This document shows positions 5,828 to 39,454 of a stretch of DNA of 64,000 bases, piece by piece (position 1 is the first letter of the stretch; each line of letters starts with the position of its first letter). This DNA is from Pseudomonadota bacterium (GTDB taxonomy: Bacteria > Pseudomonadota > Alphaproteobacteria > Rhizobiales > Xanthobacteraceae): positions 505,426 through 569,425 of the forward strand of contig JBFLVM010000003.1 of NCBI GenBank assembly GCA_040758515.1, written 5' to 3'. The translations under genes were made by a program, and so were the position numbers. Below the pieces are notes generated by a model. The model did no database searches and had not been told where the DNA came from. It saw only the letters and a list, made by a program, of their open reading frames with translations.

Positions 5828-5903
5828 TGGTGGGCGCACAAGGATTCGAACCTTGGACCCGGTGATTAAGAGTCACCTGCTCTACCAACTGAGCTATGCG
5901 CCC
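5828..5903 (-). tRNA. tRNA-Lys(CTT)
   Basis: GGGCGCATAGCTCAGTTGGTAGAGCAGGTGACT-CTT-AATCACCGGGTCCAAGGTTCGAATCCTTGTGCGCCCACCA; 76 nt cloverleaf with encoded CCA. Confidence 0.97.
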
Positions 5904-18495: not shown

Positions 18496-20232
18496 CTACA
18501 AATTCTTGATAAACCCCGCGTCGATCAGCATGCGGTTGAAGCGCCGCGCCTCCGCGCCGTCATTGCACGAATAGAACAGGCCGTTGCAGCGGAGCATGAT
18601 CTTCTTCTGCTCCTCGAAACTCGGATCGAGCGGAATGCCAGCCGCGTCCTGCACGACAAGCGGCAGATAGGCGGCGTCGATGGTCTCCATCGCCGTCTCG
18701 GCCGCAGCCGGTTTGAAATTCACCGCGTCGATCGTGTAGTAGGTCGCGAAGTAGCGCGGATCGTAGGCCATCAGCCGTTTCGCGACATCGTCCTCCGTCA
18801 GATTCGGCTCGATGATGTTGGTCGAGAATTCCGGCTGATGATCGCCGTAGCGCACAATCAGAAACGGCTCGTTCGGAAACTGCTTCTTGAGCTTCGCGAC
18901 GAACGCGCCGTAATCCTGCACGCTCATGGTCTGGCGGCGCAGATATTCGTCGATCACCGGCTCGTTGCCGGGATTCTTCCAGCCCGGCGTGCGTTCGGGC
19001 CGCAGCGGCGACGCCCACGGAAAATGATTGGCACCGAGATAGACATACATGAACACCGGCGTGCCTTGTTTCTCCTGCGACAGCAGCTTCACCGCGTTGT
19101 CGTAGAAGAAGCCGTCCGGCTCGAGGCCCTTCGCGCCGAGATCCTTCGCGTCGTAGAATTTCTCGATGCCTGTCGTCGCCTGAAACGACCGTTCGCCCAT
19201 GAACGAGCCGTAGGCCGGGTAAAGCGACAGCGTGCTGTAGCCGCAGCGTTTCAGCGCCAGCGGCAATCCGCGTTCGACACGGTTTGCGGCGATGCGCGTG
19301 ACAAAATATGAGAAGCGGCCGAACGAGCGCGACGACAATCCCGTCAGCACATTGTATTCGGTGAGCCAGCTCGATCCGCCGTTGCTCTCGGCGAGAAATT
19401 TGCGCGCCTTGCCGTCGCTCGAAACAAAGTGGCTGCCGTATCCCGGCGGCAGCTTGATCTGCGGCGCCGAGCGGATGTCGTAGCTCGACTCGTCGTGAAT
19501 CATGATGATGTGCGGACGCCGCGCCGCCGGATGACACGAATCCTCCAGCGGCAGTTTCAGCCGGTCGGTGGCAAACGGCGCGGATTCCATGAAACCGTAG
19601 TTGAGAAAATCCGAAACCGCGACGGCGCCGGAGCGGGTGAACTTCGAGACATAGTTGTCGTCGTAATATCCGCGCCAGTCTTCCTGCGGCCAGGCCAGCG
19701 AAAACGACGTCAGCGCCGCCAGACACGACAGCGACATTGCAGCCGCCGGCAGACGGCGAACACGAAACGGATCGAGCCGCCACAGCGCGACCATCAGCGG
19801 CAGAATGAGAAGTGCCGCGGCGACCGTGGACCAGCGCAAATTCGGATAGATGGTGAAGAAGAACGCGATGCTGTCGCGATCGATCATCATCAGATCGACG
19901 AAGTTCACGGTCATCTGCACGATGTCGTGCTTGAGCCGCGACAGCAGCACGAGGATGACGACAATCGTCAGCGACATCGCACCGGACAAAGCGGGGCGGC
20001 GCAGCAGCGTGAGCCAAAAGAAATTCAGGCAGCCCCAGCTCAGGATGAAACACAGCCGCGCGCCGAATTCAGTTTCGGTTTCGAGCAGAAGGCTGAGTGC
20101 CGCGAGATGCGGAACGGCGACCGCAAAGAGACGCCAAAATCCGATGGGAGCGAGAGCGCCCGCGCCGGCATTGGCCATTGGCGCGGGAATGGGCGCGGGG
20201 GTCGGCGGCACTGATGTCTGCGGCGGCGACAT
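18496..20232 (-). CDS. LTA synthase / alkaline-phosphatase-superfamily membrane transferase (sulfatase-like)
   Basis: About five N-terminal TMs then IHDESS, GGSSWLTEYNVLTG, ANHFPW and YGDHQP metal-binding motifs; start ATG 20232. Confidence 0.85.
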   Translation of the reverse strand: MSPPQTSVPPTPAPIPAPMANAGAGALAPIGFWRLFAVAVPHLAALSLLLETETEFGARLCFILSWGCLNFFWLTLLRRPALSGAMSLTIVVILVLLSRLKHDIVQMTVNFVDLMMIDRDSIAFFFTIYPNLRWSTVAAALLILPLMVALWRLDPFRVRRLPAAAMSLSCLAALTSFSLAWPQEDWRGYYDDNYVSKFTRSGAVAVSDFLNYGFMESAPFATDRLKLPLEDSCHPAARRPHIIMIHDESSYDIRSAPQIKLPPGYGSHFVSSDGKARKFLAESNGGSSWLTEYNVLTGLSSRSFGRFSYFVTRIAANRVERGLPLALKRCGYSTLSLYPAYGSFMGERSFQATTGIEKFYDAKDLGAKGLEPDGFFYDNAVKLLSQEKQGTPVFMYVYLGANHFPWASPLRPERTPGWKNPGNEPVIDEYLRRQTMSVQDYGAFVAKLKKQFPNEPFLIVRYGDHQPEFSTNIIEPNLTEDDVAKRLMAYDPRYFATYYTIDAVNFKPAAAETAMETIDAAYLPLVVQDAAGIPLDPSFEEQKKIMLRCNGLFYSCNDGAEARRFNRMLIDAGFIKNL

Positions 20233-20469
20233 TGCCTTTACGCGAACTACACCCGGCTCTGTCCCGAAGCCTTGGCTGGCGGTTGCCAGGAGGCGAACGC
20301 GCGGCCGGAGACCGCAACGTGTCATAAAACTGTAATCGAAGTGTCACAGAGCGCAAGCGGCGCTCCCGCCCATATTTTTTGCGGCGGATTGGAATGTTCA
20401 GAAGGCGTTCAGGCGGGCGGCACACACCGACGCCGACCGCTGGATCCACAGGCCGCCCGCAAAACACGC

Positions 20470-20590
20470 GTCGTCCCGGCGAAGGCCGGGACCCATACTC
20501 CCTAAACGAAGAGGCGACGATGAAGCACAGCAACGGCACAGCTCACTACATCCGACAGGGGTTATGGGTCCCGGCCTTCGCCGGGACGAC
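20470..20590. repeat. REP-like inverted doublet, family B
   Basis: Perfect 28-bp inverted repeat GTCGTCCCGGCGAAGGCCGGGACCCATA at 20470-20497 and 20563-20590. Confidence 0.9.
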
Positions 20591-20629
20591 GAGGAAAATG
20601 CTGTCGCTGCGCTCCTCGCAATGATGGGC

Positions 20630-20657
20630 TTGACATTTCCCGTGACAGGATTATATT
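20630..20657 (+). promoter_or_regulatory. sigma70-like promoter TTGACA-N16-TATATT
   Basis: Perfect -35 at 20630-20635 and near-consensus -10 at 20652-20657, directly before the structured element. Confidence 0.65.
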
Positions 20658-20661
20658 CCTA

Positions 20662-21140
20662 TCCATCCCGTTCACGAGGGGCGCTTCATGAGGCGTCTTG
20701 AAGTGGGGCGGGACGCGGGCCCGCGCGTGACGTTCGCAGCGTCACGTCCGGGAGGTTGAGGGTCGCCGACCGGGCCAACTATGTGGCTCTGCCTTCGGTG
20801 GCTGCACGCGGTGCGGCTGAAGGGCGGCGAAATCCGCCCGGATGAACGAACGTCGCAAGCGTTCGGATCCCGCACCCGGAAGAGCGGTCCCTCCGCCAAA
20901 AGTCCCGCAGCAGTCAAGCTTGCGCAGACTGCGTAAACTTGTCTGCGCGTGGCGCGCCGAAAGGCGATGCGTTTCTCAAACTTCGCTGTCGCAAGCGAAG
21001 CGAGAGAAACGAGACGAGACAATTGCGCCTTTCGGCGCGTCATGCCCCTCACTTGTGAGGGGCGGACTGAAATGCCCCTCACCTCGCCGGTCGCGAGAAC
21101 GCAACGCATGCGCGGAGGAGAAGCTGTCTGAAAATTGAAT
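20662..21140 (+). ncRNA. Candidate large structured non-coding RNA or structured repeat element
   Basis: At least ten helices readable by eye, including a 17-bp helix 20950-20966/21026-21042 enclosing 8-bp and 7-bp stems; no credible ORF; promoter upstream. Confidence 0.55.
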
Positions 21141-21183
21141 CGGGAATTTTGGGAGTGACGCGCGATGCACCAACGCACCCAAT

Positions 21184-21270
21184 CGTCATCACCGGGCTTG
21201 ACCCGGTGATCCACGTCTTGCTTTCGGCAAAGAGAAAACGTGGATGGCCGGGTCAAGCCCGGCCATGACG
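21184..21270. repeat. REP-like inverted doublet, family C
   Basis: 32-bp units 21184-21215 and 21239-21270, inverted, differing only by paired CA/TG versus GG/CC changes. Confidence 0.9.
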
Positions 21271-21317
21271 AATCTTTCAATCACTGAGAAAAGCACAACG
21301 ACCGCCGAAGCGCGCGA

Positions 21318-22373
<1,056 letters not shown>

Positions 22374-38832: not shown

Positions 38833-38977
38833 GATGCTGAATAGAATGGCGGTTCCGCCGCGCCAACCTCCAATCACAGTTGCCGCATATGCATGAGAGG
38901 CAATTCCACCGGAATCGGTGCCGGACGGCCCGAAACCAGACCTTTTTTCGTTAGCTTTTGCGGCCTATATTGAGCGT

Positions 38978-39303
38978 GCCGGCTTGCCGGCTATGGAAAT
39001 AAATTGCCGTCGCAATAAACCATTCGGACCCGGGGGCAGCACCCGGCGCCTCCACCAAAGCCCGGACTTGCCGCCAGCATCTGGCGGGCTTCGGCGGGGG
39101 CGAAACAGGATCGACGAGGGCGTAAAGGGCGTGTTTTTCCCGGTATTGTTCCGCCGTTATCGGGCTATGCAATAGTTGCAAACGACAACTATGCTCCGGT
39201 TGCTCAGGCTGCGTAACGCAGTTTGAAAGACCAAGTCTAAAGTCCTGATGGATTAAGCCCCGTCAGGCGGGGTTCGGAGGCACCTGGCAACAGAAGCCTC
39301 CAC
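38978..39303 (+). ncRNA. ssrA: Circularly permuted two-piece tmRNA
   Basis: Acceptor piece ends CGCCTCCACCA at 39057; 38-nt intervening hairpin; coding piece begins GGGGGCG at 39096 (7-bp stem with G3-U70); tag frame 39178-39216; -10 TATATT at 38966. Outer ends approximate. Confidence 0.95.
39178..39216 (+). other. tmRNA tag reading frame (A)ANDNYAPVAQAA*
   Basis: GCA AAC GAC AAC TAT GCT CCG GTT GCT CAG GCT GCG TAA. Confidence 0.93.
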
Positions 39304-39454
39304 TTTCATCTCCGCTGGGAAACTGCCTGATCTGCACCCTCGCCTGCTGACCTTGCCGGTCCGGCGGGATACCATCGCCCAAACGGCGCGAGTCGCGACT
39401 TTGAGGCTGCGCAGCAATTTCATTCGGCAGAATTGGCCTGCCCGAGGACAGCGA

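Follow-up and report, generated by a model that had tools for sequence, protein, structure and literature searches.

To our knowledge, few bacterial RNAs are large and intricately folded, and those that are understood are mostly ribozymes or ribonucleoprotein cores. Like the element reported here, the OLE, GOLLD, ROOL, raiA, and HEARO RNAs are several hundred nucleotides long and have many covarying helices, conserved junctions, and GNRA loops; they were likewise discovered by comparative sequence analysis, with a function not evident from context. HEARO and the other omega RNAs, which belong to IscB, IsrB, or TnpB, resemble the element in being ornate and sometimes multi-copy, in that they can stand apart from the protein gene, and in their spread within genomes. 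Independent, promoter-driven RNA genes with several imperfect copies per genome are also represented by BjsR5, BjsR6, BjsR7, and BjsR10, which are 60-160 nt long, occur in 2-4 copies, and are found in Bradyrhizobium only (Hahn et al. 2016, PMC5082802). REP and BIME repeats, including Br-REP1 and Br-REP2, share with the element an intergenic location, repetition, and palindromic segments; the REPs are hairpins of 20-120 nt, present in tens to hundreds of copies and readable on both strands (PMC5082802). Finally, tRNA and tmRNA genes that anchor islands provide a further parallel, i.e., a conserved structured RNA gene that forms the sharp one-sided border of acquired DNA.

Here, we report that positions 20630-21146 of the window (the whole 64,000-nt stretch of DNA that was analysed) may be read as a stand-alone gene encoding a large, structured, non-coding RNA, about 480-500 nt in length, and as one paralogue of a multi-copy family, a reading in which we place somewhat better than even confidence. 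The copy in the window is called c0 and the other copies of the same genome c1 and onward. Its parts are as follows.

20630-21146, + strand: whole element, copy c0, promoter plus predicted structured RNA gene; borders from the homology limits among own-genome copies and relatives.
20630-20657, + strand: sigma-70 promoter TTGACA-N16-TATATT; hexamers conserved, spacer variable in all copies.
20664-20715, + strand: helix P1 (20664-73/20706-15), enclosing GAGGGG (20676-81) and hairpin P2 (20682-85/20692-95); from covariation.
20715-20908, + strand: core domain, closed by helix Pc (20715-19/20904-08); from covariation.
20720-32/20740-52, + strand: P3, in the core domain, loop UUCGCAG.
20759-62 and 20765-68 with 20885-92, + strand: P4, in the core domain.
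20772-77/20784-89, + strand: P5, in the core domain, loop ACUAUG.
20791-93/20800-02, + strand: P6, in the core domain.
20807-16/20870-78, + strand: P7, in the core domain.
20822-27/20834-39, + strand: P8, in the core domain, GAAA loop.
20847-52/20860-65, + strand: P9, in the core domain, GCAA loop.
20910-20948, + strand: optional hairpin module GCAGTCAAGCTTGCGCAGACTGCGTAAACTTGTCTGCGC, 39 nt; by alignment present in c0, c1, c5, and c6 and missing from c2, c3, and c4.
20949-21043, + strand: long helix P10 (20949-66/21026-43) with a lineage-variable distal hairpin (20970-21011); from covariation.
21045-21050, + strand: CCCCUC, proposed long-range partner of GAGGGG 20676-81; in c0 also the 5' arm of a hairpin at 21044-63.
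21123-21146, + strand: A/U-rich 3' tail motif GCTGTCTGAAAATTGAATCGGGAA; family consensus GGCTGTTTGA(A/C)AATTGAATCGGAA.

The element sits in a 1-kb gap between the gene of a sulfatase-family membrane protein (18496-20325, minus strand) and the 3' end of ilvC (21318-22337, minus strand); it is thus convergent with ilvC, as the first-pass annotation had described. Three distinct repeat families share this gap: a REP-like sequence at 20469-20591, the element itself from 20630 to about 21146, and a second REP-like sequence at 21183-21271. The two REP-like palindromes have arms of 35-37 nt and belong to separate families, each with tens of copies in the genome; they resemble the repeats termed Br-REP in Bradyrhizobium, and the one at 20469-20591 gives a weak BjrC68-like match in Rfam. 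Relatives have a GC-rich terminator hairpin after ilvC; it is missing here (21272-21317) and appears to have been replaced when the REP-RNA-REP block was gained. Elsewhere in the window, Rfam recognises a two-piece alphaproteobacterial tmRNA gene (38939-39304) and one tRNA gene (5831-5903).

Homology among the copies has its left limit exactly at the -35 box and its right limit after the tail motif. The promoter, which had been proposed on first reading, stands: it has 11 of 12 matches to the sigma-70 hexamers and is the sole such site in 20300-21400, where 0.2 would be expected, and the extended -10 region, GATTATATTCCTAT, is conserved. Because the hexamers are kept in all copies while the spacer varies, the site behaves like a real promoter, from which transcription would start at about 20664. 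Two promoter classes precede the same RNA in the family, one of the form TTGACA-N17-TATATT and another in which TTATCCCCGC replaces the -35 box and the -10 box is TATCAT-like. The second class has the layout TTATCCCCGC, about 13 nt, then CTTATCAT (L019, L023, L026, L028, L222-L228, and other loci), and both classes sometimes occur within one genome. At the other end, the annotation had stopped at 21140; the conserved tail motif, the sequence of which is kept across genera while the helices vary, extends the element to about 21146. No intrinsic terminator is evident.

The RNA strand of 20664-21150 folds at -253 kcal/mol (z = -6.9 against shuffles), and the minus strand of the same interval at -230 kcal/mol (z = -5.3). 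Covariation among the homologues is very strong. In the core, 96.6% of the alignment cells from 100 distinct sequences hold standard pairs, compared with 33-58% if the partners are slid, and 36 of 46 pairs have compensatory changes; the core covariation score was matched by 0 of 500 shuffles, controls that correct only partly for sequence relatedness. P1 and P2 behave in the same way, with 94.7% of cells paired in 107 sequences (35-54% with slid partners) and compensatory changes in 7 of the 10 P1 pairs. For the closing helix Pc, full complementarity was found in 76 of 110 sequences against 22 ± 3.7 in a control where partners were taken from sequences with a different 5' strand, and there are clean compensatory variants, e.g., GTGGCG/CGCCAC. 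The core of P10, GCGCCG/CGGCGC, is invariant, and three of the P10 pairs covary (A-U/C-G, A-U/C-G/U-A, and A-U/G-C).

Most of the pairings proposed from the single sequence proved to be real in that they covary across 56-107 homologues. CGTGACG (20726-32/20740-46) is the distal part of P3, GGGCGG (20822-27/20834-39) corresponds to P8 and CGAACG (20847-52/20860-65) to P9, and the 17-bp helix placed at 20950-66/21026-42 is P10, now 20949-66/21026-43. The helix that we call P1 had been placed at 20666-75/20703-13; the helix itself holds, with its coordinates shifted to about 20664-73/20706-15. One pairing was wrong: GGCCCG (20718-23) does not pair with CGGGCC (20771-76), since the former pairs with 20749-52 and the latter lies in the P5 hairpin. 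The hairpin at 21044-63 is present in c0 as annotated, but it is copy-specific; it was created by a 30-nt tandem duplication (direct repeat 21042-52/21072-82), and its 3' arm is missing from the sister copies c1-c4. A panhandle joining the 5' and 3' ends, which the single-sequence minimum-energy fold contains, is ruled out by the tail being invariant while P1 varies; the complementarity of the two ends in c0 has no covariation in the family.

The sequence GAGGGG in the P1 loop is invariant and can form at least six contiguous pairs with CCCCUC in 105 of 135 sequences. Double changes are few (AAGGGG/CCCCUU and CCGGGG/CCCCGG), and we regard a long-range pairing between 20676-81 and 21045-50 as probable. 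GNRA tetraloops are found on P8 and P9 and at the P10 base, and the nucleotides of the junctions do not vary; such loops together with invariant junctions are typical of compact tertiary folds.

Mismatch tolerance further indicates which strand, and which molecule, is constrained. G.U pairs outnumber A.C by 369 to 46 in the core and by 256 to 30 in P1/P2, about 8 to 1 overall, and this excess points to selection on the RNA of the promoter strand rather than on duplex DNA or on the opposite strand. The helices are thus kept by compensatory changes and on one strand. Taken together, the comparison of homologues shows that the fold of the predicted transcript is under selection, a fold made up of P1/P2, a multi-junction core with its closing helix, and the long helix of the 3' part. 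The structured RNA suggested on first reading is in agreement with this strong compensatory covariation and with the tolerance of G.U on the RNA strand.

These same data bear on whether the locus is only a repeat at the DNA level (REP, BIME, or MITE) or a small-protein or type I toxin locus. The element is indeed intergenic, repeated, and palindrome-rich, and it contains a 60-codon ORF at 20949-21131. The ORF, however, varies in its start codons, frame, and stops, with frameshifts and stop codons among 25 copies, and no small ORF is kept in frame in those copies; the coding reading was therefore rejected, and the earlier statement that the stretch has no credible ORF is upheld, since the roughly 490 nt after the promoter contain no conserved one. 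Against a DNA repeat, the copies are homologous over more than 400 nt that are not palindromic, and the true REPs that flank the element are separate families. With the one-sided G.U excess and the broken ORF, we regard both the DNA-repeat and the small-protein readings as refuted, and give them next to no weight.

Might the RNA be a cis-regulatory leader, i.e., a riboswitch or attenuator of the gene downstream? Its multi-junction fold, its conserved junction nucleotides, and the alternative pairings possible around CCCCUC would suit such a role. Gene orientation refutes it: a co-directional gene lies downstream in only 29 of 68 loci, the downstream genes are unrelated to each other, and c0 faces the 3' end of ilvC. 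Neither a terminator nor a Shine-Dalgarno switch was found, and a leader is in our judgement most improbable. More generally, no protein family recurs in the neighbourhood beyond orthologous synteny, and by orientation as well the gene is independent of its neighbours.

The family is wide in its distribution. The 3.5-Mb assembly that contains the window has about 11 copies, seven near-full and four partial, at 76-91% identity by BLAST, and all of them retain the -35 and -10 hexamers. Within the genus, BLAST matches were obtained in 24 of 24 sampled genomes, with up to 26 in each. With the covariance model of the core (R1, 189 positions), 66 of 151 genomes from the same bacterial family gave matches, representing 33 of 62 genera, and the number of copies per genome in Afipia and its soil-dwelling relatives ranges from 2 to at least 17. 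Hosts that can be named from a pattern scan are Afipia (broomeae, clevelandensis, and massiliensis), Rhodopseudomonas, Tardiphaga, Pseudolabrys, and Xanthobacteraceae MAGs. The occurrence of multi-copy elements of this kind in Bradyrhizobiaceae, which the first-pass annotation had mentioned, is upheld. In the rest of the order, weak matches were found in only 4 of about 200 genomes, from three other families; these loci (L235-L238) are true homologues in reduced form, the core of which measures about 120-230 nt. The promoter is unchanged in them, and P1/P2, P3-P6, and the long 3' helix are retained, while some are without the P7-P9 branch; what they share delimits a minimal conserved core. Plasmid and phage collections gave no match to the element.

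It had been claimed that the element lies outside the known RNA families, and the covariance-model search agrees: Rfam 15 has no match on it at the gathering threshold, and at E<=10 there were only chance microRNA matches far below threshold, for c0 and likewise for 16 diverse members. The literature, searched by topic and with sequence strings, yielded nothing on the element; the Br-REP repeats and BjsR RNAs of Hahn et al. 2016 are distinct from it. On this comparison, the predicted RNA family is an uncatalogued, multi-copy one in Xanthobacteraceae/Bradyrhizobiaceae. Rfam has missed it although about half of the genera sampled have it, and this in a well-studied family that includes Rhodopseudomonas, Afipia, and relatives of Bradyrhizobium.

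Since HEARO RNAs can be as large, ornate, and multi-copy as this one, the Rfam result also touches the idea of a stand-alone OMEGA guide RNA (omega/HEARO) whose TnpB, IscB, or IsrB is encoded elsewhere. There is no HEARO match among the hits at E<=10. PF07282, the TnpB zinc ribbon, had 0 matches in 41 genomes and is absent from all 25 of the genus, while 8 of 14 control genomes were positive; PF14239 (RRXRR) also had 0 matches, with its control set likewise at 0. No nuclease is found among the neighbours. Moreover, the conserved P1 begins within about 10 nt of the -10 box, so close to the promoter that a 5' guide would have no space. The OMEGA reading is thus largely refuted by the missing TnpB and guide segment, and it is highly improbable.

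The main rival to a cellular RNA gene is a non-autonomous mobile or selfish element, in which the fold would serve the element's own spread or retention with no direct gain for the host, e.g., as a ribozyme or as an RNA that a trans-acting recombinase or reverse transcriptase recognises. The copy 3' of ilvC is present only here and in three relatives, the two closest (ilvC 98-100% identical) and one further away (94%); at least six other members of the genus with the same synteny have a short gap with the ilvC terminator alone. Likewise, in a Rhodopseudomonas-like genus, a REP-element-REP block in genomes G048 and G110 stands against 141 nt in G158. From such filled and empty sites between species, copies have evidently been gained and lost. 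G048 has seven copies that are 93-96% identical over 540-650 bp in unrelated flanks, with no internal gene. These near-identical copies, the filled and empty sites of congeners, and the embedding of the element among REP repeats all speak for the selfish reading, and so do truncated copies and the contig breaks and rearrangement that run through copies. Three copies of the own genome are located at contig ends, showing that the repeat breaks the assembly. The copies c1 and c3 (C4:117-540 and C2:518150-518516) have identical 3' halves, and their outer flanks correspond to the two sides of a single copy in the relative G019, an arrangement that implies rearrangement or insertion through recombination between copies.

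On the other side, some copy sites are orthologous across distant species of the genus. Neither terminal inverted repeats nor target-site duplications were seen, and the left border of the unit is precisely the -35 box; please note that for filled versus empty sites the divergence of the flanks limits resolution and the exact boundaries are unreadable. There is no transposase inside the copies or recurrently nearby, and the genus is without TnpB. An upstream promoter that is part of the repeated unit also argues against copying via RNA. We therefore consider a selfish element unlikely, although the near-identical G048 copies, the REP embedding, and the strong one-sided link with foreign DNA described below are no less compatible with a selfish or mobile element than with a cellular RNA.

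What is new here is the low-GC, defence-rich DNA upstream of the -35 box. GC content below 0.56 was found in the 1.4 kb upstream of the promoter at 35 of 145 loci and in the 1.4 kb downstream at 1 of 142, and the median GC of the flanks is 0.608 upstream and 0.638 downstream. By crude gene calls, the largest ORFs in the low-GC upstream flanks mostly encode defence proteins: BglII, DpnI, DNA methylases, AriA/PtuA/GajA-like ATPases, AbiEii, TIR, NACHT, dCTPase, DUF5131, and HigB, as well as a DUF3732 protein that is part of a three-gene ABC-3C system. As types of system, these are restriction-modification, GmrSD/HEPN, ABC-3C, PARIS/Septu/Gabija-like ATPases, AbiE, TIR, NACHT, and dCTPase. In the own genome, defence genes lie directly upstream of 4 of 11 copies (GmrSD with HEPN; MT-A70 with BglII; an Eco57I/MmeI-type enzyme; and a RelA_SpoT protein); example flanks are C2:515000-518150, C2:848900-850560, and C3:624910-627750. 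The reduced homologues of other families adjoin a C5 methylase, a reverse transcriptase, and a PNP-family gene. Foreign DNA directly abuts the -35 box: at locus L146 (3450-7140), a 3.6-kb cassette with three ABC-3C genes and 47% GC ends within about 30 nt of it. At the far border of this cassette there is a duplicated fragment of the RpoD C-terminal end (L146:3330-3423), 1 kb from the intact rpoD, and this 3' fragment reads as the footprint of recombination rather than of an integrase. No recombinase was found in the 3.6-kb cassette, and no integrase is among the 25 of 29 families listed for the 46 largest ORFs of the low-GC upstream flanks.

We consider the association of defence islands with the promoter side to be real. 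It may stem from recombination for which the conserved, multi-copy gene provides the anchor, from counter-selection of insertions on the downstream side, where the gene lacks a terminator, or from a genuine link in function. The last possibility would make this a defence-linked RNA, which either takes part in or regulates anti-phage defence or whose 5' edge is the landing site of a possibly RNA-dependent capture of cassettes. The asymmetry of GC, the defence ORFs (including those beside own-genome copies and reduced homologues), and the direct abutment of foreign DNA all favour such a role. However, about 70% of copies have ordinary core genes upstream, among them c0, which lacks an island of this type. 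The adjacent systems have no mechanism in common, the junction has neither an integrase nor a recombinase gene beside it, and the rpoD 3' fragment duplicated at the edge of one island speaks for ordinary homologous recombination. A defence-linked RNA is on balance quite unlikely. The more specific proposal, that defence cassettes are inserted or exchanged at the -35 edge without an adjacent integrase, with the RNA being part or target of the capture system and its fold needed for capture or for controlling the captured genes, is in our opinion very unlikely.

Returning to the stand-alone RNA gene, which we prefer, the following course of events may be envisaged. The RNA would be made constitutively from its own promoter and would fold into a compact tertiary structure, for which the invariant junction nucleotides, the three or four GNRA tetraloops, and the probable GAGGGG/CCCCUC pairing are the grounds. 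It would then probably act in trans, as an RNA or RNP; antisense pairing seems less probable than a role as a scaffold or the binding or sequestration of a protein. Our analysis found neither a partner protein nor a target for the RNA, and a scan of the own genome for sequences complementary to the tail gave matches at chance level only. Several copies and two promoter classes could provide dosage and differential control. The left (-35) edge is also a recurrent junction with horizontally acquired defence cassettes, which we read as arising either from recombination at a gene that is conserved and multi-copy or from insertions tolerated next to it. With up to 17 or more promoter-bearing copies in a genome, the RNA is predicted to be abundant in cells, and it offers a tractable new RNA for studies of structure and function. 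The one-sided association with defence genes, in turn, is a handle on the placement of defence islands without integrases in alphaproteobacterial chromosomes.

Set against the systems with which we began, the element resembles each in part. The islands lie at its 5' (promoter) side and not at the 3' end as with tRNA and tmRNA anchors, and unlike at those anchors, neither an adjacent integrase nor a duplicated 3' gene fragment was seen. It differs from HEARO and the other omega RNAs in that the genus lacks TnpB and in having no HEARO match, no variable 5' guide, and no IS200/IS605 ends. In contrast to OLE, GOLLD, ROOL, raiA, and HEARO, it has no sequence or structure match in Rfam 15, is confined to one alphaproteobacterial order, and is without prophage association, and it carries a consensus promoter in each of its 2 to at least 17 chromosomal copies. 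Compared with the REPs, it is 4-5 times longer, strand-specific, and promoter-bearing. Unlike the BjsR RNAs, finally, its predicted RNA is about 500 nt long, has a multi-junction fold, and is family-wide.
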